Virus record (IMG/VR): IMGVR_UViG_2617270876_000003
Location: 96,001 to 160,000 of that record
From: a virus
Taxonomy: Duplodnaviria; Caudoviricetes
DNA length: 64,000 nt
Direction: 5' to 3' (one strand)
Part shown: positions 201 through 44,528 of the stretch, piece by piece
Numbering within the stretch: position 1 is the stretch's first letter
Layout of the letters: the number at the start of each line of letters is the position of its first letter
The notes under the pieces: generated by a model
The model's database searches: none
The model's input: the letters and a program-made list of their open reading frames with translations, nothing else
What the model was told of the DNA's origin: nothing
Made by a program: the position numbers and the translations under genes

Positions 201-227
201 CTTCGTGAAATTCGTCTTTTATTGAAA

Positions 228-527
228 TTAACCAAACGGATTGAGAATCTTTGTTCTTCCATCATCTTCATATTTCTCCCAAGCTTCAGAAGCCCAGTCC
301 ATTATATCACTGGTGAAAATTGAATCACTGGCAGCACTTTCGCCAACACCGCCGTTTCCTTTGTCAAAGGTGCTCCATCTAGTTACATATTCAAGATGCG
401 AAACTGCACCAGCACCAGCACCTTGGATAAGTTCAAAGTGAGCATTTGTTTTTAGAATAAGGACATAGTCCTGTGAATCGTCTACGGCACTTAAGGTTCC
501 CTTTAATTGATCTAGTGTTGGCTTCAT
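228..527 (-). CDS. Hypothetical protein
   Basis: ORF; ATG at 527 with GGAGG RBS. Confidence 0.7.
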   Translation of the reverse strand: MKPTLDQLKGTLSAVDDSQDYVLILKTNAHFELIQGAGAGAVSHLEYVTRWSTFDKGNGGVGESAASDSIFTSDIMDWASEAWEKYEDDGRTKILNPFG

Positions 528-603
528 AAAATGCCTCCCATATTTACATATGTACTCCAATAGGATACCACATAATATTAATGTATTGATTACAGCAGAG
601 TAA

Positions 604-813
604 TTATTGATAACTTCTTTTTGCAATCTCAAATAAGATAGGCTCTGTCATCATATGGATAGGATATGTTGATTGTAACTCCTTGTAACTCTCCCACAAA
701 GTCCGAACTCTTGCTTCCATAGGTAAATATCCTTGTTTTCTCCATTCGACAATCTCATCAAAACACGTTTTCAAATCATCGTCGGATAATTTTGAAATCA
801 TTTCTTCTAACAT
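604..813 (-). CDS. Hypothetical protein, paralog of 6729-6959
   Basis: Shared EWRKxGxL and TEPxLxE motifs; AGGAG RBS. Confidence 0.75.
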   Translation of the reverse strand: MLEEMISKLSDDDLKTCFDEIVEWRKQGYLPMEARVRTLWESYKELQSTYPIHMMTEPILFEIAKRSYQ

Positions 814-853
814 ACATACTCTCCTTTTGTATGACATGAAATCTACATTTCAT

Positions 854-1216
854 CTAGTTACCAGAATACACATTCTTTGTGATTGGATAATAATAAATCT
901 CAATATCTTCGTGAATGAAGCCTCTTCTTTGAGCAGCCAAAAGAGTTTCATACATGTTTGCTCTTCCTACGGGATTGTCTGTATGTAAATATATCTTATC
1001 AACTTTTAATCCATACTCACAAAAATATTTAACTAAATCATAGCCATTTGGTAACTCATGTCCATGTTCATCTTCGCCTAGATCATGATCCAGAGTCAAA
1101 ATATTAACATCTTGAGATTCAATAATGGCTATTGCCTCTTCATATGTACGAGCAAGTATAAACCCTTCAGGACAATCACGAAGATCGTCTACATACAGGT
1201 TAATTTGCTGTGGCAT
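854..1216 (-). CDS. Stand-alone cyclic-phosphate-processing receiver (cREC-type) domain protein
   Basis: Motifs LYVDDLRxxP, LDHDLG, GYD and HTDNPVG. Confidence 0.75.
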   Translation of the reverse strand: MPQQINLYVDDLRDCPEGFILARTYEEAIAIIESQDVNILTLDHDLGEDEHGHELPNGYDLVKYFCEYGLKVDKIYLHTDNPVGRANMYETLLAAQRRGFIHEDIEIYYYPITKNVYSGN

Positions 1217-1249
1217 GTGCTCACTCCTCTCAGTAAAACTTGCATTTGA

Positions 1250-1513
1250 TTAAGAATTCAATCTTAAAAGAGTTTCTTGATAATTGTGCTCCAAGTTAGT
1301 CCAGAAGCTCTTAGGAATTTGAAAAACTTGCTGCAGTAGTGAAGATACTTTTTCGTCATCATATCTTATCTTGCTAGTGTTTAGCGCATCATAATATTCT
1401 TCACTGACTCCAGTTTCCTTAATAAACTTCTCTTTAGTCCACTCTCTGTCTTCAAGCACTTCTTTAAAGGTTTCACATGGAGGAACAGCAATTGGTGCTT
1501 GATATTCATTCAT
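1250..1513 (-). CDS. HigA-like antitoxin/HTH protein
   Basis: N-terminal PPxETFKEVLEDREWT and C-terminal FWTNLEHNY, typical of HigA. Confidence 0.6.
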   Translation of the reverse strand: MNEYQAPIAVPPCETFKEVLEDREWTKEKFIKETGVSEEYYDALNTSKIRYDDEKVSSLLQQVFQIPKSFWTNLEHNYQETLLRLNS

Positions 1514-1561
1514 AACTCATCACTCCTTTTGATTTGATAAAACATGTCATTTACTTATTAA

Positions 1562-1789
1562 TCAGATTAAATTTTTCATAGTATAAATGTATCCGTAAAC
1601 TCGGTACTGTTCAATGACATGTTGAGTTGTGCCATTATCAGTGAAACACCTTACATCTAATCCTCTCTCCTGAGCTTCCGCAACTGCATTTGTCAATGCG
1701 GTATCATCAAAAACATTAGAATGTACATTAAACTCTTTAGTTGTATTATTGACCACAACAAACGTAAAACCATTTGAGTTATTTTTCAT
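1562..1789 (-). CDS. Hypothetical protein
   Basis: ORF with AGGAG RBS before ATG 1789. Confidence 0.65.
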   Translation of the reverse strand: MKNNSNGFTFVVVNNTTKEFNVHSNVFDDTALTNAVAEAQERGLDVRCFTDNGTTQHVIEQYRVYGYIYTMKNLI

Positions 1790-2158
1790 TATAATCTCTC
1801 CTTTTTTATGAAAGAACCACTTCAAAGTGATCTAAGTACCCATCAATTCATTCAAGCATTCTATAATATCAATACTTCTGTATTATAAGTTAGTTCCCAA
1901 AATTGCTCCAAGGCTGCGCTCATGGCTCTCCATCGAGTTGTGGCCTCTTCCTCTATAGTTCCAACTTCTCCGTTAATTGTACGGTATTCTAACGTGTGTT
2001 TGACCATTTCTACCTCATCCCTCTCTTCCTGATTCGGTATAATTTTGCCTAATAGCACCTTGAATAATTTGCTCTATATCATCTGAAGTGCCTTCACTAT
2101 TAGATAGTCTATCAACGACAAGAAGAAAGCATTCCTCCCACATAATCAAATAGCCATT

Positions 2159-2977
2159 TTATCCAGCTTCCTGGATATCAATAAGCATCTGTCTAACTTT
2201 GTCTAAGTGTTCTTCACTCATAATTCTGCCTCCAGTATTAAGCATCAGGAAATATCTTAATTTTTGTTCTCTGTCTAAATTGTGAGTCTCAGCAACATTA
2301 ACAGTGTATCTTTTAAAATGGAGTTGATCTTTTGGAGACAAATCCTTAAAGTAAAATCCTTTGTACTTGAATCTACTTTCATAGAAATCCAAGATCGATT
2401 TATATCTCTGCTTTCCATCAAGTATCTCGTAAGCATATTTAAAACCATTTTTCTCCCACTCATCATCGGAGAGGTGAATAAAAGCAAACTTACCAATATC
2501 CACATTATTATAAATTGCATCAATTAATTTAATCTTATCGGTTTCTTCCCAAACATATTCACGTTGATACTCTGGATCAAAATCCACTCCGAAATAATAA
2601 GCTTTGTGAAACAAAGATTCTAATCCTGTTTGCGAATAATTAAGCCTAATATCATCATTTTTCACAAATGATGCTCTATTATCGTTCAGTTTTTTGACAT
2701 CCATCCAATTACAATAGCTCTTTTGGTTTTCATTTCTAATTGGATTTCCGTAATTATTGTTTATTGAAGTGTATCCTATTTCAATGATTTTCCCATTATG
2801 AAGAATGTTTAATACTACAACATCTTCTAATGCACCAAGTCCAACGCTTTCTCCAATTTCAAAAGAGTAGGTTGGATCGGGGATAAGAAACAATCTGTCC
2901 TCCAAATTCTTTAATTCTCTCATGTGATTATCTTGTTTTAGTCTTTCCTGGTTGGCTTCTGTTTTCTTTTTTGCCAT
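2159..2977 (-). CDS. DUF262 (ParB-like/GmrS-type) domain protein
   Basis: Motifs PEYQREYVW, ILDGKQR and LNTGG. Confidence 0.8.
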   Translation of the reverse strand: MAKKKTEANQERLKQDNHMRELKNLEDRLFLIPDPTYSFEIGESVGLGALEDVVVLNILHNGKIIEIGYTSINNNYGNPIRNENQKSYCNWMDVKKLNDNRASFVKNDDIRLNYSQTGLESLFHKAYYFGVDFDPEYQREYVWEETDKIKLIDAIYNNVDIGKFAFIHLSDDEWEKNGFKYAYEILDGKQRYKSILDFYESRFKYKGFYFKDLSPKDQLHFKRYTVNVAETHNLDREQKLRYFLMLNTGGRIMSEEHLDKVRQMLIDIQEAG

Positions 2978-3027
2978 CTATGTATTCCTCCTCAATATAT
3001 GGACATGAAACAGTCATTTGATCTGTA

Positions 3028-3261
3028 TCAATAATTATCAAACCATTCATTAGCTGCAACCTCAACATCGACAAAACTAGAAAATATCTTTTTATCGCTT
3101 CTTGAGTCATAAATAATTCCATTTTTATCTGTTACCTCAAACCAGTAAGAATCTTCCGATTCAGAGGGCAGATGAATTTGTACTTGTATTCCCTTATTCG
3201 TTTCTGCTTCATGAAATGCTACTTCTCCATTTAACCAAGCCACTTCTTTAAATATCAACAC
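3028..3261 (-). CDS. Hypothetical protein
   Basis: ORF with GAGGAG RBS. Confidence 0.65.
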   Translation of the reverse strand: MLIFKEVAWLNGEVAFHEAETNKGIQVQIHLPSESEDSYWFEVTDKNGIIYDSRSDKKIFSSFVDVEVAANEWFDNY

Positions 3262-3298
3262 AATTATCGTCTCCTCACGAAACAGCTATATTAATAAA

Positions 3299-3607
3299 TT
3301 ATTTTTTTGATTCAAATTCCTGAATTATTTCATCTATTTTTTCATTTTCCTGATATACATACTTTAGAAGTAAATTGCCTGTATTGCCAAATTTGACGAG
3401 CTGTCTATCAAATGAGAACTCTTGTCTTTTAAAATCTACATTCTCCACTTTTGAATTTTTTAGAGCATGTTTGATTTGCCATTCTATCGCTTTAGATACA
3501 TCAATGTCGTTAACTCTAACTTCATTGATTCGATTAAATGAATCCTCGTTTTCGGCTTCGTAATAGTCAATAGTTCCATCCTCAAAAAGTTTAATAATCT
3601 TTACCAT
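3299..3607 (-). CDS. Hypothetical protein
   Basis: ORF. Confidence 0.6.
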   Translation of the reverse strand: MVKIIKLFEDGTIDYYEAENEDSFNRINEVRVNDIDVSKAIEWQIKHALKNSKVENVDFKRQEFSFDRQLVKFGNTGNLLLKYVYQENEKIDEIIQEFESKK

Positions 3608-3633
3608 AAGTTTAACCCCGCCTTATGAAATAG

Positions 3634-3960
3634 TTATTTTACGATCTCATTCCACTTATTGGAAACTACATAAATATCCAGATTCGATCCATCGAGTTTA
3701 ATAGTGTGGTTTACAATGTTATGCTCAACGACTTTACTTGAATTAATTATTACATCTCTGTCCGCTCTAATAAAATCACTACTTACAGAATTAAGTACCG
3801 CCTGCGCCTCTTCAAGTGTCTGAGGCATATTCAGTTCTCCATATGCAGTGATGTATGTTAGTGATTGATTCTTACTATTTCGAACAGCTAAAATTTCACT
3901 GTCTTTTACCCACATTACTTCAATTTCATTTAACTCATTGCGTTTGATTAATCCGAACAT
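3634..3960 (-). CDS. Stand-alone LytTR-type DNA-binding protein
   Basis: C-terminal TLEE...FIRADRDVIINSSKV resembles the LytTR FxRxHRSxxVN motif. Confidence 0.6.
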   Translation of the reverse strand: MFGLIKRNELNEIEVMWVKDSEILAVRNSKNQSLTYITAYGELNMPQTLEEAQAVLNSVSSDFIRADRDVIINSSKVVEHNIVNHTIKLDGSNLDIYVVSNKWNEIVK

Positions 3961-4119
3961 AGTCATCATCCTCCGATATTTTATATTATGTATTTCGACA
4001 ACACCATGAAATAAACCTTTCGTCATATCTTACCCACATCTTAATTATACAATAAAGAATTCTATTTATCAATTATTTATTTTTACTTTATAAATAATAA
4101 GCATTACTCTATCCATAAT

Positions 4120-4182
4120 ATATGGTGACGCAATACAAAAAAGCGAATGCACTAGGCACTCGCTTTGATTAAGTCACCATAT
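4120..4182. terminator. Extended hairpin/terminator
   Basis: Outer ATATGGTGAC/GTCACCATAT stem enclosing an AAAGCGAATGC/GCACTCGCTTT stem. Confidence 0.6.
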
Positions 4183-4271
4183 CTCTTAGCGGCTTCCAGA
4201 AGGTTAATTTCTTCGCCTGAATTAGTCCTAACAACCAATTGACCATCTTTATTACGCCCACTCTTAAACAT
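4152..4271 (-). CDS. Small hypothetical protein (39 aa)
   Basis: Manually translated MFKSGRNKDGQ...KASA*; GGAGG RBS. Confidence 0.45.
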   Translation of the reverse strand: MFKSGRNKDGQLVVRTNSGEEINLLEAAKRYGDLIKASA

Positions 4272-4443
4272 ATCGATATAAGCCTCCTGTACGTCTATTA
4301 TAGACTTCTACATAAGACTTTGCTTTGTGAGTCCACTCATATACACGATCCATTAAGATGTAGCACATGGCCATTGTTGAACGTCCTCCTTGTTCAATAG
4401 ACTCAACAACCTCACTGTTTACTATAACATCGTACGTATTCAT
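4264..4443 (-). CDS. Small hypothetical protein (59 aa)
   Basis: Manually translated MNTYDVIVNSEVVES...GLYRYV*; AAGGAG RBS. Confidence 0.6.
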   Translation of the reverse strand: MNTYDVIVNSEVVESIEQGGRSTMAMCYILMDRVYEWTHKAKSYVEVYNRRTGGLYRYV

Positions 4444-4647
4444 TATATTATCTCCTTTGTATTTTTATTTTATAAGTCCTGAATACTTCATATCAGACAT
4501 GCCTTTGTTTAATCCCGACATAATTGCTTCTCGAATTTCATCACTTGTTAATTTTCTTCGCCAATTTGGATCTGGAACAATGTTTCCTACTAACTTTCTT
4601 CTTTTTGATTCGCCCATAAATTCTCCTCACTTAATCAAATTGCTCTT

Positions 4648-5193
4648 TCATGCTATTTCGTAAATATGGTAACAATAGATTTCCTCAATTTCAGGTTCGT
4701 CATATAGATAATCCGCTTGAGAATTTTGCTTCCCGATATATTCACCCCACTTTTCCCATCTCCAACCACCGCTACTTGACTGATTCCTTTTTGTTGTTTT
4801 AGAAAGCCCCAAGACAAACTTACGATCATCTATTTCAAGTTCTGGATATTGGTCTAAGACTTGTTGATAGTCGTCGCAAACACCATAATTCCCTTTGCTT
4901 TCAACACCTTCATCCGAACATTTATTAAAATAATCCCAGTCGATATTACCATCTTCTGTCTTTCTAATTATCGAAAAACTGTCCCATCTTTCAATGATTT
5001 TATCTTCAGAGAACAATTCAATATAGTGATTGAAATTTAGTCCTGTATAATATATCCCCTTGGCGATTCGATGACAAAGCTCATCAGTTCCTTTTACTGA
5101 ATACTTTCGATATTCTTCATCACTATAATGCTCTTTTAATCTTTCATTACATTCATCAATCAAATATTGTTTAAATTCAATGTCGATTAGCAT
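4648..5193 (-). CDS. Conserved-looking phage hypothetical protein
   Basis: ORF with NYGVCD and GWRWEKWGEYIG motifs. Confidence 0.7.
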   Translation of the reverse strand: MLIDIEFKQYLIDECNERLKEHYSDEEYRKYSVKGTDELCHRIAKGIYYTGLNFNHYIELFSEDKIIERWDSFSIIRKTEDGNIDWDYFNKCSDEGVESKGNYGVCDDYQQVLDQYPELEIDDRKFVLGLSKTTKRNQSSSGGWRWEKWGEYIGKQNSQADYLYDEPEIEEIYCYHIYEIA

Positions 5194-5230
5194 TATTTAT
5201 TCATCTCATTTATGTATCTTTATCAAAGAC

Positions 5231-5512
5231 TTATTTCATCAACTCAAGAGCAGCCTTCAGTTGTGCTATATTCTCTTCGATTTTAGTTTTAATTTTCTCA
5301 ATTGCTTCTTGTCTTGCGAGTTCATCATCCGTATTTTCAAGAACTTGCTGTTTAATTTGCATGAAATCTGAAGACATCAACCAAGTATCTTTAGGGTAAT
5401 AAATATGACGATGAATTTTTACATCGATTCCATTTAAAAGTGCCAACCAGCAATTGGGAACTTTCTCTTTATCATTTCGACTATATGAGGATTTATCTTT
5501 CCATTCGATCAT
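5231..5512 (-). CDS. Hypothetical protein
   Basis: ORF, AAGGAG RBS, flanked by dyads at 5222 and 5530. Confidence 0.7.
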   Translation of the reverse strand: MIEWKDKSSYSRNDKEKVPNCWLALLNGIDVKIHRHIYYPKDTWLMSSDFMQIKQQVLENTDDELARQEAIEKIKTKIEENIAQLKAALELMK

Positions 5513-5546
5513 CTTTTTTTCTCCTTCCCACGAAATACTTCTTTCA

Positions 5547-5750
5547 TTACCTATTCCATATGTTATCTTCTTTATCATCATTCCTTAAAATCCCACTCAA
5601 TAAAGTAATTGTTTTTAATAATCCTTGCTTTTCAACTTCACTTACTCCTGTATGTTCAATATCATAACGAAGCCATTCGACCATTTCACTTGCTCTTTTG
5701 ATTCTCCTAGCTTTTCTTCTCAAAATTGCTTCTGTTTCAGTCTCAGTCAT
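5547..5750 (-). CDS. Hypothetical protein
   Basis: ORF flanked by dyads at 5530 and 5766. Confidence 0.6.
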   Translation of the reverse strand: MTETETEAILRRKARRIKRASEMVEWLRYDIEHTGVSEVEKQGLLKTITLLSGILRNDDKEDNIWNR

Positions 5751-6130
5751 AGAATGTCCAACCCCTTAAAATAATCCTTTCAAAAACCCCTTACTAATTC
5801 AAACCTTTGGCTAAACCATTCATCATTGTTCCATTCATGATTAATATCACACGCAATCATTTGATACCCCTGGATATGGCAACATTTGTCTTGTTTGCGC
5901 GGAAAGCATATCTTTGTAAATCGAAACATCGTAATTATCACCCTCTTTATACATGAGTTCACCCGCAAAACTATACACATGCTTTAGGCACTTAACCTTC
6001 ATATCCTTCAATCTCCTTATAATAAAGTTCTCGTCTTCTATCTAAAGCGTATCTCATCGCTATTGATTCGTTGTGTTTCTTTATATGAATGCGCTTCGCC
6101 TATGTCACCCTTCGATACCCAAGTTACATA

Positions 6131-6418
6131 TCAACTAGGAAGGATACAGGTATAAGTATGGATGTTCTCACTAATCACAGGCAATTGAAACTCACCACAA
6201 TATTTCGGATATGTAATGTAACCATCAATCAGAAAATCAAAATAGTATTTTTCGATAAAATCAAATTTGTCTAGAGAAGGAACAAGAACAAACCACTTCT
6301 TTTTATCTATTGATTGAGATTGAACCGATAACTCCATACCCTGGTCAATGTTATATTTTTCATTGTCTATCTCGTCTGTAACAGCCATAGTACATACTAT
6401 TCGGCATCTATAATCCAT
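6131..6418 (-). CDS. Hypothetical protein
   Basis: ORF with RBS. Confidence 0.6.
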   Translation of the reverse strand: MDYRCRIVCTMAVTDEIDNEKYNIDQGMELSVQSQSIDKKKWFVLVPSLDKFDFIEKYYFDFLIDGYITYPKYCGEFQLPVISENIHTYTCILPS

Positions 6419-6443
6419 ATTTTTCCTCTCCTTGTTAAAATAT

Positions 6444-6695
6444 CTATCGTCTATTTAAGACCACCTGACTTGATTTAATTACTTCTGCTATATCATAGTT
6501 TTCAACTATATCCTTTAACGTTGAAAAGCATTTGATTACAAACGACTGTCTGTTACCACTGAGTTTAATAACTTGAAATCGCTTTGTATTAAAATTGTTG
6601 TAGATAACCATGTGGGGGTTGCCTTTCTTTGTTATGAACACATCGCCTACATTAAGATCAGATTCTTTATTCTCAATTCCCAAGTGTACTTTCAT
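6444..6695 (-). CDS. Hypothetical protein
   Basis: ORF with GAGGAG RBS. Confidence 0.65.
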   Translation of the reverse strand: MKVHLGIENKESDLNVGDVFITKKGNPHMVIYNNFNTKRFQVIKLSGNRQSFVIKCFSTLKDIVENYDIAEVIKSSQVVLNRR

Positions 6696-6728
6696 CTTCT
6701 CATCTCCTCGTGAAAGAATCCTTTTATC

Positions 6729-6959
6729 TTATTTTAACAGTCTTGCTCTATATCGCTTGACCATTTCATAAAGTAATGGCTCAGTGATTAAGTGAATCAT
6801 ATAAGTAACCCCGCCATTAATTTCACAAAACCGATCATAGGTGCTTCGAAGAATACCCTCTTGTAATACCCCAGTTTTTCTCCATTCTTCGTTTTCATGG
6901 AAGGCCGCTTCAATTTGTTCATCAGTCAATTCGGTCATCATCTGCCCAATAGTTTTCAT
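6729..6959 (-). CDS. Hypothetical protein, paralog of 604-813
   Basis: Shared motifs; flanked by dyads at 6710 and 6975. Confidence 0.75.
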   Translation of the reverse strand: MKTIGQMMTELTDEQIEAAFHENEEWRKTGVLQEGILRSTYDRFCEINGGVTYMIHLITEPLLYEMVKRYRARLLK

Positions 6960-6988
6960 TTCGTTTGTCTCCTTTTAAAATAATCTTT

Positions 6989-7399
6989 TCATCGTCCATT
7001 AAAATATTCTAAAACTTCATCTAAAGTATCCAAAGGTGTTATGTACTCTGATCCTTCAAACTTAGCCATCCACGGTTTCATAAATTTCAAATCAGCAATG
7101 GGTGTTTTGGTAATAATCTTTTTTCTCGTTTTTATTCGATCATTGTATCTTTCATCATTATCTTTAGTCATTGTGTGAGAGAAGTGATAAAGTTTCAAAA
7201 GTTCCTCATCAGTGAAATCATCTACAATGCCGTTGATAACTACCACAGATTTGCAGTCATAGATGTTGTATAGTGACTTTGTTTTATCTGTGTTTGATTC
7301 TTGCCAAATCCACCAGAACTGATTTAAGTCTCCATTCCACATTAACTTATCGATTAATGACTCTCTGGATACATCCATAATAACTGACACAACACTCAT
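6989..7399 (-). CDS. Hypothetical protein
   Basis: ORF flanked by dyads at 6975 and 7406. Confidence 0.65.
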   Translation of the reverse strand: MSVVSVIMDVSRESLIDKLMWNGDLNQFWWIWQESNTDKTKSLYNIYDCKSVVVINGIVDDFTDEELLKLYHFSHTMTKDNDERYNDRIKTRKKIITKTPIADLKFMKPWMAKFEGSEYITPLDTLDEVLEYFNGR

Positions 7400-7429
7400 C
7401 TCCTCATGAAATATTCATTTCGTAGTCAT

Positions 7430-7612
7430 CTAAACGGTTCTTTTAATGAATTTTCCACACCAGTACCAATCACCATTATGAAGAGAAAGCGTCTCTTTAA
7501 TTTGGCCGCTACACTCCCAGCCTTCTGACTCCATCTTCTTCACATGACTGTCTCTTTCTTCTTTGGAGTCATATTGAAATGTAGCATTTGTGTATTCAGA
7601 CAATATTTTCAT
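7430..7612 (-). CDS. Hypothetical protein
   Basis: ORF, GGAGG RBS. Confidence 0.6.
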   Translation of the reverse strand: MKILSEYTNATFQYDSKEERDSHVKKMESEGWECSGQIKETLSLHNGDWYWCGKFIKRTV

Positions 7613-7638
7613 TAATCTCAACCTCCGCATTGTACAAA

Positions 7639-7896
7639 TTAATTAATCTCTTTCCTTATCTCTTTCCCTTCCTTTGTTACAGCTCCCATTCTTATGTATA
7701 CATCAATATTTCGTGGAACCTTAAACTCATCTCTGTCAAACACTGGAGTAATTTCACCGTGTTCACCTGAAATCGATCCTCCTCCAACATGAAACCATCT
7801 ACCGTCATAGTCTCGAATAAACCCCCAGCGTCCAAGATAAAGAGAGTCTTTGCTTGTTATTTTAACAAGTTTACCGATTAAGTTTTCAGGCTTCAT
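7639..7896 (-). CDS. Hypothetical protein (SH3/KOW-like)
   Basis: GKLVKIT...GRWGFI pattern; GGAGG RBS. Confidence 0.6.
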   Translation of the reverse strand: MKPENLIGKLVKITSKDSLYLGRWGFIRDYDGRWFHVGGGSISGEHGEITPVFDRDEFKVPRNIDVYIRMGAVTKEGKEIRKEIN

Positions 7897-7910
7897 AATT
7901 CCCCTCCAAG

Positions 7911-8321
7911 CTATAAAGATTGAAAACGTTCAGTATCGATTCTTGTTAAACGTTCCTTGTTCAGATTATCGTAAATTTTCAAAAGACGATTATCAGAAAT
8001 TAGATTCCTCCCAAGTTGAAATGCTCTCGCTTCAAATTCAAATTTGTTTTCTATATATGACTTAGAATTAAACTTTTCAATTAATTCAGAGTTGTTCTTA
8101 AAGTCTAGATAGTGTCCAAATTCGTGATAAGCAATGCACATAAAAGTATCTTTTAGAAGATAGCCAAATCTTCCACTGATCCCCAGTACTTGACCAATAT
8201 TAAAGTGTATAGAATTGGATTTAGGTCTATAAACCATAGGTTTGTATAATTCCTCATCTTTCACAATCAAGCAATCAAAGTCATTGCTATTGACAATCTC
8301 GTTCAGCAAATCTTCCCACAT
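7911..8321 (-). CDS. Putative zinc metallopeptidase (HExxH)
   Basis: AYHEFGH motif plus downstream EFEARA. Confidence 0.6.
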   Translation of the reverse strand: MWEDLLNEIVNSNDFDCLIVKDEELYKPMVYRPKSNSIHFNIGQVLGISGRFGYLLKDTFMCIAYHEFGHYLDFKNNSELIEKFNSKSYIENKFEFEARAFQLGRNLISDNRLLKIYDNLNKERLTRIDTERFQSL

Positions 8322-8349
8322 ATTATTAGCTCCTTATCAAAGGATCATT

Positions 8350-8904
8350 TCACGCATTACCTTGATATTCTCCATAATACTTTTTTCTCATTTCGGCGGC
8401 AAATTCCCCAGCCTCATGGACATCCTCAAAAGTTCCAAGGATAGTATTTCTCTTGTTGATTTGTAGTTGAACAGACCACTTTTTAAGCTCTTTATTCCAT
8501 GACACATTTCTATAACCAGATTTATTATTTTTATTCTTTGTTGTTCTATTCATTAAGTTTTTATCTTGTGAAGTGACTCTCAAGTTATCTTCACAGTTAT
8601 TTAACTCGTTATTATCCTCGTGGTCTACAACTTCTCCCTCCTTAATCGGTTTGATAAAATGATGCATATAAATCATTTCATATCTTGGCTTTCCATCAAC
8701 AACTCCTTTATAAACGGAGCATCGCGCATAGTAAGTGTTGTTTACTTTATTCCAATATGTATGCCAAGAATGCCCCAAATCTAAAAATTTTTGAAGATTT
8801 TTTAAATCAATGTAACACTCCATTGTCTCTTTTAGTCTGTTCTTTAAATAAATGATTACCCTATCACCATCAATAACATATTTATTAAATTTCTTTTTAG
8901 CCAT
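8350..8904 (-). CDS. HNH-AP2 homing endonuclease
   Basis: VDHEDNNELNNCEDNLR (HNH) and SGYRNVSW...LGTF (AP2). Confidence 0.85.
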   Translation of the reverse strand: MAKKKFNKYVIDGDRVIIYLKNRLKETMECYIDLKNLQKFLDLGHSWHTYWNKVNNTYYARCSVYKGVVDGKPRYEMIYMHHFIKPIKEGEVVDHEDNNELNNCEDNLRVTSQDKNLMNRTTKNKNNKSGYRNVSWNKELKKWSVQLQINKRNTILGTFEDVHEAGEFAAEMRKKYYGEYQGNA

Positions 8905-8957
8905 ACCCTTATTTACATTTCTCCTTTTAGATAATGTGATAAAAACATAATTTCATC

Positions 8958-9107
8958 TTAAGCAACTTCTTTCGTATGAATCATGATAATCCCTTTATCA
9001 CTCTTACACATTTCAATAAATAGCTTCATATCTCCTTCTTTTTCAAATTTGTATCGATTTACACTTAATTTACCGCAGATTTTTTCAATAATTGATACTT
9101 CAAACAT
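8958..9107 (-). CDS. Small hypothetical protein (49 aa)
   Basis: Manually translated MFEVSIIEK...KEVA*; own promoter at 9157-9204. Confidence 0.55.
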   Translation of the reverse strand: MFEVSIIEKICGKLSVNRYKFEKEGDMKLFIEMCKSDKGIIMIHTKEVA

Positions 9108-9254
9108 TTTATGTGCCACCCTCTTGCTATGTATATTGTTCCTTTGTCTTGTATTAATTATAACACATATAATTATTCATGTCTATTTATTTTTACTTTA
9201 TAAATCTCAAATAAGAAAAGTGTCGTAGATAAAATCTCAACACTTTTCAGTCTA

Positions 9255-9503
9255 TTAATATTTACTTTTAGATGAGAAATAGAATATGCCTACTGAAACA
9301 ATAATGCAAATAGCAACTAATGGGAAGCTAACAAGATGATTGAATAACCAATTTGCGAAACCTTGTTGAAGCGACATGTCTACTTGTCCACCCAAAAACT
9401 CTTGCTTTTCAGGAGTTGTTACTTTTAATCCGTAGATGATCAAGCAAATTAATGGATAAACCAAAGCCAATGCTCCCAGTGCAATCTTCTGATCACGTTT
9501 CAT
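9255..9503 (-). CDS. Small two-TM membrane protein
   Basis: Two hydrophobic segments; AGGAGG RBS. Confidence 0.65.
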   Translation of the reverse strand: MKRDQKIALGALALVYPLICLIIYGLKVTTPEKQEFLGGQVDMSLQQGFANWLFNHLVSFPLVAICIIVSVGIFYFSSKSKY

Positions 9504-9630
9504 ATTCACCCTCCTTTCATCTATATATTGTATTGCTCGAATCAATCATAACACTATATATAGATTTTGGAAATATTTTTAATTATGACTAAAGGAAATT
9601 AATCTTTCACCGAAAAGAGTAGCCCTTCGG

Positions 9631-9849
9631 CTACTCCTCTTTTATCATCTTGTTCCAAGCGTCTTCAACAGCTTCGGCTTGAGTCATAAAAGAGTCAGAT
9701 ACAGATCTCTTTTTAGTCTCAAAATCTTCAAGATAACACTTAAACATTCCAACGGTTTTTAGAAATACTATGTACTCACGTCCATCCAATTCCATTATTG
9801 AAATCTGTACCTTGTTATTGTGTATTTGAGAATCGTTTATCATCAACAT
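9631..9849 (-). CDS. Hypothetical protein
   Basis: ORF with RBS and GAGTAGCC/GGCTACTC terminator. Confidence 0.65.
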   Translation of the reverse strand: MLMINDSQIHNNKVQISIMELDGREYIVFLKTVGMFKCYLEDFETKKRSVSDSFMTQAEAVEDAWNKMIKEE

Positions 9850-9929
9850 ATGATCACTCCTTAATACAATTATATTTTAATATATCATGAATACAGTGTT
9901 AAATGAAACATCTTAATAAACTCAGACTT

Positions 9930-10139
9930 TCATGCTAATTCAATTTGAAGAACATACATATCTGGTTCCATACCACTTTCATTTTTGCCACTATGATTTA
10001 TGAATCTAGAAACAACTTTGAATTTTACGATGCTCATTTTAAAAGTCAATAATACAAAGTCTCCTGTAGCTGGAATGTTCTTAGCTGTCACTAGTTGAAA
10101 TAGATCAAGCGAATCACATGCATAGATAAACTTGTTCAT
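9930..10139 (-). CDS. Hypothetical protein
   Basis: ORF flanked by dyads at 9916 and 10162. Confidence 0.65.
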   Translation of the reverse strand: MNKFIYACDSLDLFQLVTAKNIPATGDFVLLTFKMSIVKFKVVSRFINHSGKNESGMEPDMYVLQIELA

Positions 10140-10167
10140 GCTATTTCTCCTTTTTATCTGACTAAAA

Positions 10168-10347
10168 TCATTCTTTTATGTTAAGCTCATCTTGACTTAC
10201 CCATATTCTATTCCCATCATCACCCGTAATAAGATATTGCATTCTTTGCTCAATAATCTCGTATTTGTCTCCAGCAGGAAAGTATCCAATATAATTTTCC
10301 TGACTTACTTTAAGAATCGCGCTCTTTCCAATTTTCATAACTTTCAT
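10168..10347 (-). CDS. Small hypothetical protein (59 aa)
   Basis: Manually translated MKVMKIGKSAIL...NIKE*; AGGAGG RBS; stop falls in the dyad spacer. Confidence 0.6.
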   Translation of the reverse strand: MKVMKIGKSAILKVSQENYIGYFPAGDKYEIIEQRMQYLITGDDGNRIWVSQDELNIKE

Positions 10348-10609
10348 AAAAATTCCTCCTGTTTTTGTATTTTAATTTTAACGGAATTCGTTTCATCTAG
10401 ACTAATGCCTTGCCATATCCCTAAAAACCGCTGCAATATCCTCATCATTAATGATCCCTATACTTCCATCAGATTGCAGAATTATTGCTTGTTTCTGATT
10501 TGGATCGTAACCTAAACCGTATCGCTCTGCTGCGGCTTTAATAATTTGTTGAATATCCTTCTCCATTCTAATCACTCCATTATAATATGCATTTCTATTT
10601 GTTTAAAAT

Positions 10610-10780
10610 TCAACTTTCATGAGGCCTGGCTTCATCATTGTTAGTATACATCTTATTAATCATATCGCTTAATCTATTTATAATTCCTGAGTCCCTGCCT
10701 GTTACAGTCTCGATTCCCATAATATAAAACGCCGTATCGTGCAAAAGATCTGTTAACTTCATTTTCAATTCTTCATCCAT
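10610..10780 (-). CDS. Hypothetical protein
   Basis: ORF flanked by dyads at 10603 and 10795. Confidence 0.6.
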   Translation of the reverse strand: MDEELKMKLTDLLHDTAFYIMGIETVTGRDSGIINRLSDMINKMYTNNDEARPHES

Positions 10781-10808
10781 ATAAGTCTCTCCTTTTAAAA
10801 TAACTGTT

Positions 10809-10985
10809 TCATTCAAATGTATTTACAGTTTTGCTTATACATCTAACGAACAAATTGCTGCCCTCTCTTTTATAAACGAAATAGCTTTTATTTTTAAATA
10901 CAATGCAGTCACTTTCATAAATTTGAATATTCGACTTTACAGTAAATTCTTCTTCATCGTGGATCAATACTTTGTAGTTATTCAT
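10809..10985 (-). CDS. Small hypothetical protein (58 aa)
   Basis: Manually translated MNNYKVLIH...NTFE*; stop TGA supplied by the dyad arm. Confidence 0.6.
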   Translation of the reverse strand: MNNYKVLIHDEEEFTVKSNIQIYESDCIVFKNKSYFVYKREGSNLFVRCISKTVNTFE

Positions 10986-11220
10986 AATAACTCTCCTTTT
11001 CTTTGTAAAATCCTGCTTTCTTGGAATTATTAGTTATTATCAAGATCAACTAAATGTTCCCATGCATACGGTGTAATACAGGTCGCTTCTTCCTCGTTAT
11101 AGCAGACTATATCTTTGCCGAATTTATAGTGTGATTCTTTCTTTGTATCAATCTCTTTCCCACAGTAAGCACATTTAACTTTTGCCATTTTATACGCCTC
11201 CTCTTAAAATACTGTTTTGA

Positions 11221-11406
11221 TTAAGAAACTGATTTTAATTGACCAATCGAAAACCTAGCTGTTTTACCTACCGATTTATCTCCCTTAATCATTTCAGTTA
11301 TTTTCACATCCACTTTTGCTGATTTAAATAGGTGTCCAACAACACATCCTTTATAATGCTGTCTTGACGTTTCAATTTCTACTGTCATTCCTACCATTGA
11401 TTTCAT
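11221..11406 (-). CDS. Hypothetical protein
   Basis: ORF, GGAGG RBS. Confidence 0.6.
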   Translation of the reverse strand: MKSMVGMTVEIETSRQHYKGCVVGHLFKSAKVDVKITEMIKGDKSVGKTARFSIGQLKSVS

Positions 11407-11538
11407 TTTAAATAATCCTCCACTATTTCAATTTCGTTTCAGCATGAAATCGTTGTTTCCTTAAGAATTTTAATATGTTTTTCGTTATTTTTTCTTAATA
11501 ATATTAAATCACCAAATCATTAATTAGTCCATTTATTT

Positions 11539-13599: not shown

Positions 13600-13691
13600 T
13601 ATCGCTCCTCAACTACTTTATTTAATTATTATAACCAACTTCTGAAGATGTCCCAATACGTTCTCAATTAAATTAAAATTTGATCAAAATA

Positions 13692-19909: not shown

Positions 19910-19919
19910 AGTTTCTCCT

Positions 19920-26127: not shown

Positions 26128-26289
26128 TTTAAAACCTCCATAATATGTATTTAGTAACCGTGTCCCTCATTTGCTTATAATTTATTATAGCATGGTTTAT
26201 ATTGTATGTCTATTTATTTTTACTTTATAAACAAAAAAATAAAGCCTTTCGGCTTTGTGTTTTCGCATGAAATCTTGTTTTTATGAGAT

Positions 26290-26646: not shown

Positions 26647-26692
26647 AGAAATAAAGCCTCCTTAATTAAGATGAAATATGGTTTTTATCATA

Positions 26693-26959
26693 TTAAATGA
26701 TTGGTTTAATCTTCAGCCAAAACTTACCGTTCAAGTAAATGTCTATGGTTCCATCTTCATTGAATTTGGTATCTTTGGCTTTAGGAATATCAAGCCATGA
26801 ATCATTTCCGTTAACTAGTGTTGTTATTGCATTGGTTTGAACCTTGTTAATTTCTCTTACTTGGCCTCCTGCCATTTCTGGTTTCATTGTGTTTTCAATG
26901 AACTGAATTTGCTTGCCTTTCTCTAACCATTTTTTAAATTGGGACATATTTTTAATCAT
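26693..26959 (-). CDS. Hypothetical protein
   Basis: ORF. Confidence 0.65.
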   Translation of the reverse strand: MIKNMSQFKKWLEKGKQIQFIENTMKPEMAGGQVREINKVQTNAITTLVNGNDSWLDIPKAKDTKFNEDGTIDIYLNGKFWLKIKPII

Positions 26960-27256: not shown

Positions 27257-27321
27257 ATTATCAACTCCGATTAATATTTTCATCTTATAAAATCCGGTTT
27301 TTATCAAGCTCCTAAGAAAGA

Positions 27322-27651: not shown

Positions 27652-27734
27652 ATGTATCAACTCCTGTGATTGTATTAGTTTTGATAAAATTATCATTTGA
27701 TTGGATTGTCCAGAGGAGTCTCAAGACTCCTCTT

Positions 27735-36251: not shown

Positions 36252-38525
36252 TTATCTAGCCTTCTTCAGCAAATCGCATAAATGTGTATTCCGTCTCATA
36301 TTATCCACTTTTCGTATGGCATAATTCAGTGTCTCGGCTTGAGTTAAGAATATGCACTTCTGCTTACTGCGAGTGATTGCCGTATAGATTAGATTAGCAG
36401 AAATTTGGAATTTATTGGATTTATCTACTATACACAAAGCAGCTTCAGACGAACTTCCTTGTGATTTGTGAATGGTATATGACCAACTGTGTAATAACTG
36501 AGTTGCTAATCCAAAGTCTAATCTGACTAGATTATCATCAAATTGAACAATGATCCCCTTCTTATCTCTTTCAGTCATCTCTTCGTCTTTATTGCCTTTC
36601 TTGTCATCCTCAAACTTTAAATCAATTACATTCCCTGAGTCTCCATTAACTACATCTATTCCTTGCTCATCCATGTCGGCAATTCGGTACATATTTACGG
36701 TGTTCAAAACGTAGTCTCCAACTCTTAAGATATTATCGAAACCATATTTATGTTCCTTCTTATTACCGTCTTGTGGATTAACAACTTCCTGTATATATTT
36801 ATTTATTTCAATCGTTCCAAGCTTACCCTTCTTGGTTGGTGTTAGCACCATGATGTCTTCAGGAGTAAATGTCTCAAGGAAAGTTTTATAATATGTCTTA
36901 TACCCTTTTTCCATATGTATTTGATCTACGCAATGCAAAAGAAAGTTATCGCCAAATAACTTCTTACCTTCAAAATCATTCTTAACAAATTGCTGTCCTT
37001 TTCTAATCTTTGTTGCAATATCTAATATCCCGCCATCACTCTGTCTAAAAACAATGTCAAGTTTAGTCATCGGTATGGTTCCACTTTCAATTACATCGTG
37101 AAGGAAATTTCCAGCCTGAATACTCAATAACTGGAATGAATCGCCACAGAAGAGTAATCTAGTTTTTGGATTTTTTATTTTTGCTAATAAACTTGCAAGG
37201 ATAAACACATCAGTCATCCCTGCTTCATCTATGATCACAAAGTCTTCCGCAATCTCGTACATATTTTCTTCATCTTTATCCATACCGTAACCAATTTTTC
37301 TATGTATAGTTTGTGCATCTACTCCTGTATACTTCTTTGTTACTTTAGCAGCTTTAGCTGATGGTGACATAAAAGTATATGTGAGACCAAGTTTATCAAG
37401 TAAAATAACTAAGAATTTTTGCATCGCAGATTTCCCCGTACCAGCAAAGCCAACAAGAAGATTAACGGGATGCTTTTGAATATTTCTAAAGAAGTCTTTC
37501 TGTTGATGGGTTAGTCCATTTGGAATATCTTCTTTATATTCTTCTTCTATGTACTTAATAAATTCTTCTGAATCAAAATTAAGTTCGGTTCCATCGTCAA
37601 GCTTCTCTTTGAGTTTCTTAGATATGTAATATTCTGCATTGTATGTTCTGATTAATGAAATCTTATTGTCTATAAACTTTAACTCGTCAGTCTCATCGAG
37701 CATTTTATCAATCAACTCAATCTCCAATTCCAACTTCTCTGAAGCACTTCTTAATAAATCTTCTCTGTACATAAAAGTATGTCCATGTTGCTGATTCTCG
37801 TCTATAGTGTACCGGATACCATACATTATTCTTTGCGGATTGTCATGAGCAATGCCCATCTGCTTGGCAACCTTATCTGCTCGTTTGAATCCCCAACCAC
37901 TGATAGCGACCAATTCGTATGGGCAGTCTTCAATCTTTTGTATCGCTAATTGTTTGCTGCCGAACTTTTCTTCAAGTTTTAAAATTACATCATAGGTGAT
38001 ACCATACTTACCTAATCGTCCAAGTATTTCTTTATAGGCCAGATTATCCATAATACGATTTCTAATACGTTTATAGACAACTGGCCCAAAGTTTCTTACT
38101 TTATCATAATCGAATTTGTCGTCTATGATAAGTTGAACAATATCTTCATCTGGATAGGTTTTATAAACCTCTTTTAACTGTAATTCAGTCATAAGCGTCG
38201 AAAGAAACGCTTGTTGCCCCTCCATTGTTTGTGGCACATCTTGATATATAGAGAGAACGTTATAACTTGCTCCAAATCTAGGGTCAACCTTATCTAATTC
38301 AATTTGAGCTTCGTATTCGACTCCTAATTCTAGCCGTTGCATTATACCCTTGATTGATAGTCTGTCAAAAGTATTCAGCATAATTTCATCATTTTTAGTG
38401 TTGCATGAATAAATGCGAAAGTCATTCTTATTATCTGCCTCCCTCTTAGGAAACATCATTTTTTCAGGTGTCAACTTTAATTCAATAATATTACTCAAAT
38501 TACTCTTCATCCTCCTTATTCTCAA
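36252..38525 (-). CDS. recD2: RecD2-like ATP-dependent helicase
   Basis: GWGFKRADKVA (HhH), GFAGTGKS, TIHRKIG, IIDEAGM, GDSFQL, FRQ and TIHKSQGS motifs. Confidence 0.9.
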   Translation of the reverse strand: MRIRRMKSNLSNIIELKLTPEKMMFPKREADNKNDFRIYSCNTKNDEIMLNTFDRLSIKGIMQRLELGVEYEAQIELDKVDPRFGASYNVLSIYQDVPQTMEGQQAFLSTLMTELQLKEVYKTYPDEDIVQLIIDDKFDYDKVRNFGPVVYKRIRNRIMDNLAYKEILGRLGKYGITYDVILKLEEKFGSKQLAIQKIEDCPYELVAISGWGFKRADKVAKQMGIAHDNPQRIMYGIRYTIDENQQHGHTFMYREDLLRSASEKLELEIELIDKMLDETDELKFIDNKISLIRTYNAEYYISKKLKEKLDDGTELNFDSEEFIKYIEEEYKEDIPNGLTHQQKDFFRNIQKHPVNLLVGFAGTGKSAMQKFLVILLDKLGLTYTFMSPSAKAAKVTKKYTGVDAQTIHRKIGYGMDKDEENMYEIAEDFVIIDEAGMTDVFILASLLAKIKNPKTRLLFCGDSFQLLSIQAGNFLHDVIESGTIPMTKLDIVFRQSDGGILDIATKIRKGQQFVKNDFEGKKLFGDNFLLHCVDQIHMEKGYKTYYKTFLETFTPEDIMVLTPTKKGKLGTIEINKYIQEVVNPQDGNKKEHKYGFDNILRVGDYVLNTVNMYRIADMDEQGIDVVNGDSGNVIDLKFEDDKKGNKDEEMTERDKKGIIVQFDDNLVRLDFGLATQLLHSWSYTIHKSQGSSSEAALCIVDKSNKFQISANLIYTAITRSKQKCIFLTQAETLNYAIRKVDNMRRNTHLCDLLKKAR

Positions 38526-39567
38526 TCATTTTTTTGGCGCTTAACTTTAACTGCATAAGCACCCCACCCTTTTGACTCATTATCAATTCCAGGAACTCTT
38601 CTCTATTCAATTCGTTAAAAATATCATTAGATATTTCATTCTCAAAGCGCAAACTTGGGCTGTTAGACAAATCTTTATGACTGTGTTGATAATGCTCAAA
38701 GTAAGTATCAAAACTGGAATGTCCTAGTTGATCCTTAATTTCTTCAATCTTTCCACCACTCTCTTCAATCCAGCCAGCCATAACATTTCTCAAACTGTGG
38801 GGAACAACTTTTTTACCACCATTGAATTCAAAATGCTCGTTTATATCGTCAAACATGTTCTGAATCGTAGTCTTACTTAAATGAAATACTTTGTTATCAT
38901 TGTAGCGCCGATAATATTTCTGTTCTTTAATCTGAAGTAATTCATTATAAAACTCTTCGGAGATTGGTTGAACTCTTTCTTTGTCACCTTTATCAATTAC
39001 GGTTACTTCGTAATAATCATGATAGGGATGTTTCTTAATATCATCCCACCCAATGTTTAATATGGCACTTTTACGGAATGAAGTTGTATACCCCATTCTA
39101 ATAAAAGCAGCTTTCTCAAGTCCCTTACTCCGTGTGTTTTTAACAAAGTCACGAATCTCCTTAGCTTCCTGATCATTCATCTCACCATGTTTATTTGATT
39201 TCGCTTTGAGAAAATCAACCTTAACATGTTGGGCATTAATTGGATAACCGTTAACTTCAAGAAATTCATACAGGCTGAAAATTGCTGACAAATACTTATT
39301 GATTGTTCTAGGTGCGTAATTATATCCCGTTTCCAAGAAATCTTGATATCTAATAATTATAGAGTTTTTTACCTGGATGTCATCTTCAGTTAATTTATTA
39401 ATGTCTTTGTCTTTATACCATCTAAAAAACATTTTTAGTCCGCGTTCGTAAACATCTGCCGTAGATTCATTTTTTTTCTTACATTTCAATAAGAAAGCTT
39501 GGATGTCTTCGTACACAGATCCTTTATGTAATCCAGTCACATTATACTTATTAATTGCTGCTTCCAT
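38500..39567 (-). CDS. Tyrosine recombinase (SPbeta YopP-like)
   Basis: Catalytic residues R (SFRKS), K (DKG), HSLR, LGH and Y (EHYQH) all present. Confidence 0.85.
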   Translation of the reverse strand: MEAAINKYNVTGLHKGSVYEDIQAFLLKCKKKNESTADVYERGLKMFFRWYKDKDINKLTEDDIQVKNSIIIRYQDFLETGYNYAPRTINKYLSAIFSLYEFLEVNGYPINAQHVKVDFLKAKSNKHGEMNDQEAKEIRDFVKNTRSKGLEKAAFIRMGYTTSFRKSAILNIGWDDIKKHPYHDYYEVTVIDKGDKERVQPISEEFYNELLQIKEQKYYRRYNDNKVFHLSKTTIQNMFDDINEHFEFNGGKKVVPHSLRNVMAGWIEESGGKIEEIKDQLGHSSFDTYFEHYQHSHKDLSNSPSLRFENEISNDIFNELNREEFLELIMSQKGGVLMQLKLSAKKMIENKEDEE

Positions 39568-44402: not shown

Positions 44403-44528
44403 TCTAATCAAACAATAATTTTATCGTAAATATACATATACCGAAACTCTATTAGCTTTAGCTAATCTGATGCCTGCATTACCGAGGGGATTACACTCCC
44501 CTCCCCAACTCTACCTTGAAAGGTACAT

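Follow-up and report, generated by a model that had tools for sequence, protein, structure and literature searches.

Dyads at Gene Junctions in an SPbeta-like Prophage

The window analyzed here is a stretch of 64,000 nucleotides from the virus record IMGVR_UViG_2617270876_000003, and it lies at G000:C1:4328714-4392713, where G000 is our label for the 5.87-Mb chromosome (50% GC, i.e., guanine plus cytosine) that carries it. It falls inside a ~196-kb island of 33% GC, at about 4,232,000-4,429,000 of G000, that we assign as an SPbeta-like prophage. The large terminase of the island is 66% identical to SPbeta YonF and 76, 72, 67, and 67% identical to prophage proteins of two Paenibacillus, one Oceanobacillus, and one Terribacillus genome. 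The layout of the island is ~135 kb of mostly small minus-strand genes followed by ~60 kb of plus-strand structural genes, with a large serine recombinase at the left end. Positions 205-11461 of the window are a piece of the minus-strand accessory part, and every gene there is on the minus strand, in agreement with an earlier description of small, co-oriented genes made without database searches (hereafter, the sequence-only reading). This region repeatedly carries an 18-bp dyad, inverted 6-bp arms of consensus ATRAAA and TTTYAT around a 6-bp centre, at the junctions between genes; what the dyad may do is the subject of this report.

Relatives of the prophage were found within the genus: a DNA search of 115 other genomes gave matches in 14. 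Two of these, G218 and G298, hold collinear relatives of ~175 kb with 65-88% identity where alignable, although in G218 only 45 kb is alignable with G000, in 64 pieces. Two others, G046 and G013, hold small islands with single-gene matches to the G000 prophage. A megablast search of the 205-11461 region against a phage collection gave no match, and when the terminase was used for a family-level search, 6 of 200 genomes matched, all of them distantly (identity no higher than 28%). Sequencing runs listed for this DNA comprise one DNA run in the form of Logan contigs, probably the source of the assembly, and no RNA run.

Three definitions of the dyad are used below: a strict pattern (RTNAAA-N6-TTTNAY), a core pattern (TNAAA-N6-TTTNA), and a relaxed pattern consisting of the core plus one-mismatch variants. 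The six sites that the sequence-only reading gave as examples (836, 2145, 3005, 6710, 8336, and 10795) are present as written. Its figure of about 25 copies in 205-11461 does not hold for the strict pattern it stated, of which there are 11 copies; there are 18 core copies, and with the ~5 one-mismatch variants about 22, so that a figure of this size needs the relaxed definition. Seventeen of the core copies are at gene 3' ends and one, at 757, is intragenic. The region has ~35 gene 3' ends, and the further claim that most junctions carry a dyad is likewise correct for the relaxed motif (about 22 of 35) and incorrect for the core motif (17 of 35). The dyads of the window are listed here by window coordinates and without a strand; the strands of genes are in parentheses.

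205..222, core dyad; centre TTCGTC (+ strand), past the stop of gene 228-632(-)
757..774, core-pattern match within gene 604-837(-), the nearest stop being 82 nt away; probably fortuitous rather than a junction site
836..853, core dyad; centre TCTACA, also in G218 and G298; a 94% identical G046 block ends in the right arm
1233..1250, core dyad; centre CTTGCA, also in G218, G013, and G046; G046 and G013 homology starts in the left arm
2145..2162, core dyad; centre TAGCCA, common to G218 and G046
3005..3022, core dyad; centre CAGTCA, common to G218 and G046; G013 homology stops just past the dyad
3625..3642, core dyad; centre TAGTTA, common to G046
4634..4651, core dyad; stop TGA of gene 4648-5193(-) within an arm
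5222..5239, core dyad; stop of gene 5231-5581(-) within the centre
5530..5547, junction variant with one mismatch; sense ATGAAA-N6-TTTCGT
5766..5783, core dyad; arms TTAAAA/TTTCAA, at the stop of gene 5780-5980(-)
6710..6727, core dyad; separates genes 6729-6959(-) and 6444-6695(-)
6975..6992, core dyad; stop of gene 6989-7399(-) within an arm
7406..7423, junction variant with one mismatch; sense ACGAAA-N6-TTTCAT
8336..8353, core dyad; at the stop of gene 8350-8904(-), which encodes an HNH endonuclease
8939..8956, core dyad; centre ACATAA, common to G298
10162..10179, core dyad; centre TCATTC, common to G218
10603..10620, core dyad; at the stop of gene 10610-10816(-)
10795..10812, core dyad; centre TAACTG, common to G218
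11005..11022, junction variant with one mismatch; sense AAGAAA-N6-TTTTAC
11204..11221, core dyad; at the stop of gene 11221-11406(-)
13667..13684, junction dyad beyond 205-11461
26267..26284, junction dyad; centre TCTTGT, common to G298
26671..26688, junction dyad; centre TATGGT, common to G218 and G298; an 88% identical G218 block ends right past the dyad
27287..27304, junction dyad; centre TCCGGT, common to G218
27684..27701, junction dyad; centre TTATCA, common to G218
44407..44424, dyad in the plus-strand part of the window; centre CAATAA, common to G218

The sequence-only reading had been prepared to fall if the motif were not enriched at junctions over an AT-matched background, and enriched it is: the window holds 26 matches to the strict pattern, whereas dinucleotide shuffles give 3.65 (sd 1.72, maximum 10), and none of 100 shuffles reached 26. 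Genome-wide there are 137 strict copies, 78 of them within the main island. The island as a whole (197 kb) has 110 core copies, 90 of which fall in junction zones that make up 20.5% of its bases, whereas setting the arms at 14 alternative spacings (k = 0-5 and 7-14) yields 19-49 copies, 4-18 of them in junction zones. The fixed length of the spacer is thereby upheld (110 copies at k = 6 versus 19-49), and with two arms separated by exactly 6 bp the dyad has the geometry of dif and pdif sites. The island dyads span about 4,241,800-4,356,400; in the late region they are rare and mostly non-junctional. Frequently the stop codon of the upstream gene is inside the left arm (the TRA of ATRAAA) or in the centre, and at most sites the next start codon is 15-37 nt past the dyad. 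Sequence information is limited to ~6-7 bp per arm, the flanks being confounded by stop codons and ribosome-binding sites.

A Symmetric Double-Stranded DNA Site

Base frequencies over 59 junction sites are mirror-symmetric. Position 3 has A33/G18/C7/T1 and its mirrored position 16 has A25/G22/C7/T5; the symmetry extends into the centre, where position 7 has T27/G15 and the mirrored position 12 has T32/G14. The individual bases at mirrored positions are nevertheless independent of one another: positions 3 and 16, and likewise the pairs in the centre and flanks, match no more often than shuffled partners on either strand in these 59 sites, and A-C and G-G oppositions occur at the frequency that independence predicts. 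Because no covariation is present, the dyad is not an RNA stem, as the sequence-only reading had argued in favouring recognition of double-stranded half-sites; rather, it fits a symmetric double-stranded DNA site for a protein dimer.

Other identities were tried and rejected. An RNA hairpin is rejected for the lack of a covarying pair on either strand and of any Rfam match to the dyads at E values up to 0.1; a weak A/U stem without covariation makes no credible RNA element. Promoter or terminator identity fails as well: none of the strong consensus sites is a dyad, and the count of promoter-like sequences in the region is 57, against 57.6 in shuffles.

Centres as Ordered Addresses

The sequence-only reading held that the sequence of the spacer is free. 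This is wrong, as the centres are specific to their junctions and are common to related prophages letter for letter and in order. Within each element, all centres are distinct (110 of 110 in G000, 78 of 78 in G218, and 79 of 79 in G298), with no identical pair in any of them; a column-shuffle null expects 2.6, 1.5, and 1.1 such pairs, respectively, corresponding to P(0) values of 0.07, 0.18, and 0.35. The evidence for uniqueness is thus weak in each genome alone, and all three point in the same direction. In G000, 29 pairs of centres differ by at most one mismatch, compared with 42 expected, and none of the 267 centres is self-complementary.

Between elements, identical centres are in large excess over the control: 32 versus 3.8 for G000 and G218, 22 versus 3.4 for G000 and G298, and 22 versus 2.7 for G218 and G298. 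Pairs with one mismatch show no excess in the same comparisons (60 versus 60.6, 48 versus 54.5, and 35 versus 43.4). The order of the shared centres is collinear at 32/32, 21/22, and 21/22 of them, respectively, and 32 matches between G000 and G218 are on the same strand versus one in reverse complement. Collinearity of this kind argues against capture and shuffling of genes within a genome and for exchange in register between genomes.

The flanks at these junctions are mostly unrelated. At same-centre pairs of G000 and G218 the free arm positions agree in 44-59% of cases, compared with 30-49% in random pairs, and the 20 bases on each side are 34-40% identical in ungapped comparison, compared with 31-33% at 21-40 bases out. 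At 29 of the 32 sites shared by G000 and G218, no blastn similarity was found in either flank. Flanking open reading frame (ORF) pairs were homologous by blastp in 3 of 41 assessable cases with G218 and in 2 of 25 with G298; gene calls were heuristic and crude, and many flanks could not be assessed. When the 25 intervals between consecutive shared centres were compared with G218 by tblastn, no G000 gene had a match in 13 of them, and in none did all genes match. The slots 836-1233, 2145-3005, 3005-10162, and 10162-10795, for example, are bounded by the same centres in G218 and contain unrelated cargo of a different length.

Because the 6-bp islands of perfect identity differ from junction to junction amid replaceable genes, identity of the centre between genomes would seem to be the property under selection; it is hard to explain otherwise. 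By sequence, the dyads have the attributes of heterospecific recombination sites, with centres that are distinct within a genome, identical between partners, and asymmetric. Moreover, since the centres are junction-specific and conserved, the heterology-tolerant recombinase that the sequence-only reading had called for is unnecessary.

G000 also contains a second low-GC island of ~53 kb (3,257,000-3,310,000), with 16 core dyads, a terminase-like gene, and a YopP-like recombinase (44% identity). It has no centre in common with the main island (controls 1-2) and little shared DNA, which suggests two non-cross-reacting sets of sites in one cell.

Breakpoints of Homology

Mapping of breakpoints in relatives against the dyads, which the sequence-only reading had put forward as a check, revealed that homology begins or ends at dyads with the centre intact. 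The clearest case is a 416-nt block of 94% identity in G046 (window 838-1253), which is bounded by the left arm of dyad 1233 and the right arm of dyad 836; both centres are kept (6/6 and 5/6), and there is no similarity outside the block. Five further block ends between G000 and its relatives lie within a few bases of the outer edge of a dyad whose centre is intact. Exchange between identical centres would of course be traceless inside the site, and homology that ends at the outer edge is therefore what the proposed exchange predicts. A reading of the lack of breakpoints inside the spacer as a lack of crossover there was dropped for the same reason.

Elsewhere in G046, at 4773675-4773713, two dyads are only 3 nt apart, with the centres found at window -5763 and, in degenerate form, at window 836. 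These two centres lie 6.6 kb apart in G000, and the G046 arrangement resembles a slot that has lost its cargo, or a deletion with its ends at the edges of dyads.

The dyad also clusters in related prophages of four other genomes, and in SPbeta itself. The core pattern has 54 copies in SPbeta at spacing 6 versus 17-34 at the other spacings, except for 49 at spacing 7, where it overlaps AAAA/TTTT runs; the strict form ATRAAA-N6-TTTYAT has 14 copies versus 0-3 at other spacings. SPbeta dyads are at gene ends in the yoq, yor, yos, and yot regions. When SPbeta (60-134 kb) was compared with phi3T (50-128 kb), 26 centres of 39 dyads each were shared, and in the same order. The Paenibacillus trio (G000, G218, and G298) shares no centres above control with SPbeta or phi3T.

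Across SPbeta dyads 83687, 92752, 113663, and 131161, identity to phi3T jumps from about 30% to 100%; inside the right arm of dyad 86885, it drops from 100% to 33%. A 3.2-kb block of 99.97% identity between the two phages has dyads at both ends. Dyads 69423, 88399, 116414, 117534, and 118469 are identical in phi3T at 17-18 of 18 positions, with both flanks unrelated. When SPbeta 116100-116740 served as a megablast query against the phage collection, the match ended at query base 332, the last base of dyad 116414, in 7 of 15 records. Over the comparisons of G000 with its relatives and of SPbeta with phi3T, where one flank was homologous and the arms differed, the differing arm was on the non-homologous side eight times, on the homologous side once, and on both sides once. 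Since the differing arm is mostly on the non-homologous side, each arm appears to travel with its flank, placing the crossover between the free positions of the two arms.

Laboratory hybrids of phi3Ts and SPbeta have been described, with a single non-homologous joint given as "following yosA" (bioRxiv 10.1101/2020.05.06.055103). SPbeta dyad 116414-116431 (L007 16414-16431) lies 90 nt past the 3' end of yosA, and its phi3T copy is identical with heterologous flanks. Hyb2 and Hyb3 are pure SPbeta at this dyad. The Hyb2 switch beside dyad 113663 is not placeable, the parents being identical for >540 nt beyond the dyad.

A Candidate Enzyme

The sequence-only reading pointed to the site geometry of tyrosine recombinases, and the element does encode such an enzyme, Xer-like and apparently intact, ~27 kb from the 205-11461 region:

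38500..39567, minus strand, Xer-like tyrosine recombinase, homologue of SPbeta YopP; 355 amino acids, with Pfam Phage_integrase and SAM-like N-terminal domains

Aligned with XerD (1a0p), the protein keeps the catalytic R (in FRKS), K (in KGDKER), HSLR, GHS, and the final Y. It is 28% identical to SPbeta YopP (E 1e-28) and is not a YopR homologue. The best models for it are XerA, XerC, and XerD, all scoring below their own cut-offs, and it scores 39.4 bits against the integron integrase model TIGR02249, for which the cut-off is 265. A YopP-family homologue is present in all nine dyad-bearing elements examined (G000, G218, G298, SPbeta, phi3T, and G201-G204), as well as at L018, a locus of G202, and in the second island of G000. 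All seven aligned YopP-family sequences retain the catalytic tyrosine. Host XerC/D-like genes are also present in G000.

In SPbeta-like phages, yopP is a core gene and is probably transcribed in lysogens (PMC10516654; bioRxiv 10.1101/2021.11.22.469490), and SPbeta integration is by the serine recombinase SprA (PMC10516654). The large serine recombinase at the left end of the island can account for integration here too. Because integration is carried out by a serine recombinase, the YopP family is a family of tyrosine recombinases without an assigned recombination role, and the geometry of the dyads, together with its co-occurrence with them, makes it the candidate enzyme.

A second tyrosine recombinase of 351 amino acids, apparently intact, extends on the plus strand from window 63126-64000 to genome 4392894 (Pfam Phage_integrase, 77 bits). 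It belongs to the late region, a dyad at 63080 precedes it by 28 nt, and no homologue of it was found in G218, G298, SPbeta, or phi3T. It is probably cargo or part of a separate element.

Other Features of the Region

Two strong promoters, each preceded by a terminator-like hairpin, divide the 205-11461 region into at least three operons:

4044..4072, minus strand, sigma-A-like promoter, 11/12 match; downstream of the terminator at 4140-4166
9157..9185, minus strand, sigma-A-like promoter, 11/12 match; in a repeat present at four more places in the island

This promoter-bearing repeat stands at operon starts at window 9157-9205 and 4040-4094, and at genome 4326997-4327045, 4354919-4354944, and 4292059-4292114; it may be the counterpart, in the G000 prophage, of the SPBRE/SroF operator of SPbeta.

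The cargo of the array includes a cREC_REC receiver-domain protein (854-1216(-), E 5e-30), a GmrSD_N/DUF262-domain protein (2159-2977(-)), a stand-alone LytTR protein (3634-4026(-)), and an HNH_3 endonuclease with an AP2-like tail (8350-8904(-)); a Pfam search gave no match for 6 of 10 ORFs tested. The small proteins of 604-837(-) and 6729-6959(-) are paralogue-like by eye only, both having the pattern EW-K-G ... TEP-L-E. Further along the window, 19920-22961(-) encodes a 1013-amino acid fusion of an N6-methylase-like N-terminus and a SNF2/ResIII helicase, and adjoining it, 18587-19909(-) encodes a 440-amino acid protein with treble-clef zinc finger, CapR, and DUF2726 domains. The relative order of the 18587-22961 block and the dyad block 26267-27700 is swapped between G000 and G218.

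Discussion

On balance, we lean towards the interpretation that the dyads are conserved heterospecific recombination joints through which related phages exchange modules in register. The YopP-family Xer-like tyrosine recombinase that the phage itself encodes would bind the arms as a dimer, and strand exchange would take place across the centre; the reaction would therefore require both sites to have the same centre. In a cell that contains two related phages or prophages, a single same-centre event would generate a chimera, whereas two events would swap the block of genes between two addresses, in register and with every gene unbroken. With no identical centres within a genome, a phage would be protected from deleting or inverting its own DNA. 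The broader proposal, that SPbeta-family phages in general carry a genome-wide, ordered set of ~40-110 orthogonal sites, read by a YopP/SroD-family recombinase and allowing exchange without flanking homology, is made more tentatively, and we regard it as possible rather than probable.

The nearest likeness is to heterospecific lox and FRT sites. In engineered cassette exchange with Cre or Flp, sites with different centres are expected not to cross-react, and sites with the same centre swap what lies between them. The dyads likewise have inverted arms and a short, asymmetric, unique centre, with variable cargo between sites; unlike lox and FRT, they form a natural set of ~100 sites in a fixed order, with arms of 6-7 bp, a centre of 6 bp, and an enzyme that is so far a candidate. 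The pdif sites of Acinetobacter plasmids (Mindlin et al. 2019, PMC6449649) are similar in being numerous Xer-type sites with a 6-bp centre that flank accessory genes found as modules across replicons. They resemble the host dif and use the host XerCD (PMC6449649), whereas the dyads are in a phage with a phage-encoded Xer-like protein and have shorter arm conservation; in addition, the dyad centres are an ordered set conserved between relatives, and nothing comparable is stated for pdif in the abstract of that paper. A literature search, with supplements outside its scope, found no published description of the dyad motif.

Several observations weigh against module exchange by YopP at the dyads. 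The conserved arm is only ~6-7 bp, shorter than those of dif, lox, and FRT, which are 11-13 bp. The second catalytic R is replaced by K in SPbeta YopP, and the H by Q in the homologue from G218, yet both phages keep dyads. The elements in which YopP homologues and dyads co-occur are relatives and thus non-independent. SroD, a YopP homologue, is said to have been described by Brady et al. in 2023 as an auxiliary repressor. Dyads are not the sole breakpoints: other block ends in relatives coincide with a start or a stop codon or lie in a dyad-free junction, and two more megablast checks gave ends 8 and 33 nt off the dyad or at dyad-free junctions, with one record ending exactly at a dyad. The 34 ends of SPbeta-phi3T blocks of at least 90% identity comprise 11 in dyad junctions, 12 in other junctions, and 11 within genes; as 28 of 115 junctions carry a dyad, the enrichment of breakpoints is modest. 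Finally, the joints of the laboratory phi3Ts-SPbeta hybrids were at homologous regions at 15 of 16 sites (bioRxiv 10.1101/2020.05.06.055103).

Those hybrids, joined mostly at homologous regions, would suit a different explanation, in which the conserved 12-18 bp serve merely as a linker for short-homology recombination without a dedicated enzyme and the palindromic arms have some other primary purpose. Breakpoints at dyads fit any crossover inside the shared core. Linker-type exchange has been proposed both for the promoter-early stem-loops (PeSLs) of T4-type phages and for lambdoid phage boundary sequences. Identity as short as that of the dyads is very small for homologous recombination, however: the only uninterrupted identity is AAA-N6-TTT plus two fixed bases, the free arm positions differing. 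Nor does this explanation tell why the dyads are symmetric and spaced at exactly 6 bp, why no centre is self-complementary, or why centres are unique within a genome, and we consider it unlikely. The PeSL is the documented case of such shuffling (Arbiol et al. 2010, PMC2839356): it too is an intergenic repeat between stop codon and Shine-Dalgarno sequence in regions of small accessory genes, and differences between relatives map to it. It consists of a sigma-70 promoter and a stable G+C-rich stem-loop, and exchange is by homologous recombination, whereas the dyads are not promoters or terminators, have no supported stem, and share ~12 contiguous bases.

Alternatively, the dyads could be operators or roadblocks at which a dimeric DNA-binding protein, possibly YopP/SroD in a repressor role like that of its relative SroF/MrpR, silences or tunes accessory operons, the footprints of recombination being a by-product. 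Such a role is in fact not exclusive of one in recombination; in place of it, we rate it as quite unlikely. Confinement of symmetric double-stranded sites to 115 kb of the early minus-strand region, with few in the late region, would be in keeping with an operator, as would the probable expression of yopP in lysogens noted above. A regulator that reads the arms, however, provides no reason for centres that are unique, asymmetric, and conserved in an all-or-none manner amid replaced genes, and the dyads are inside operons and not at promoters. The SPbeta family does provide a precedent, since a tyrosine-recombinase fold has already been turned into a repressor, MrpR/SroF, that binds a dispersed intergenic motif, SPBRE (PMC10516654; bioRxiv 10.1101/2025.11.27.690993). 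That box differs from the dyad in being non-palindromic, 24-26 bp long, and bound by the repressor as a monomer at ~10 promoters (same sources). A AATATGTATA-type word is found upstream of 9 of 10 named SPbeta SPBRE genes and is different from the dyad; as the dyads are also inside operons, identity of the dyad with SPBRE was ruled out.

The sequence-only reading itself proposed an integron-like array, in which a heterology-tolerant recombinase, able to act on any pair of dyads, would capture cassettes, excise them as circles, and reshuffle them within the genome. The superficial likeness is real enough: a recombination-type site follows each of the small, co-oriented, promoterless genes, the element encodes a tyrosine recombinase, and the adjacent dyads of G046, 6.6 kb apart in G000, indicate that deletions ending at dyads occur. 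An attC site, however, is an imperfect inverted repeat of tens of bases, with single-strand folding and conserved outer core sites. The 18-bp dyad has no such extended imperfect hairpin and no covariation, and no pairing in it is supported beyond the fixed A/T triplets. Furthermore, the recombinase is not of the IntI type (39 bits versus 265), the island has no internal duplications (two short self-hits in 197 kb), the order of centres is unshuffled, and conserved centres remove the need for heterology tolerance; the 32/32 collinearity of G000 and G218 argues against acquisition and shuffling of cassettes within the genome, and we regard the integron-like array as highly improbable. Equally improbable is an RNA-level signal in polycistronic early transcripts (a small hairpin, a processing site, or a translational operator before the Shine-Dalgarno sequence), which the location of most dyads between stop codon and ribosome-binding site, 15-37 nt before the next start, might recommend, but which is opposed by the covariation, opposition, and Rfam results above and would leave unexplained the ordered, conserved centres with unrelated flanks and, for single-stranded recognition, the mirror symmetry of base frequencies.

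Phage genomes are mosaics of exchangeable modules, and we know of no dedicated in-register mechanism established for modular exchange beyond general or illegitimate recombination and selection. If recombination between same-centre dyads is indeed what the sites are for, then address-tagged, ordered sites would be a dedicated mechanism for modular phage evolution, present even in the model phage SPbeta. The model is directly testable in Bacillus subtilis with the existing phages SPbeta and phi3T. Were it correct, it would provide dozens of natural orthogonal recombination sites as a toolbox, give yopP, a conserved core gene, a function, and account for the turnover of accessory cargo in large temperate phages that keep their backbone.

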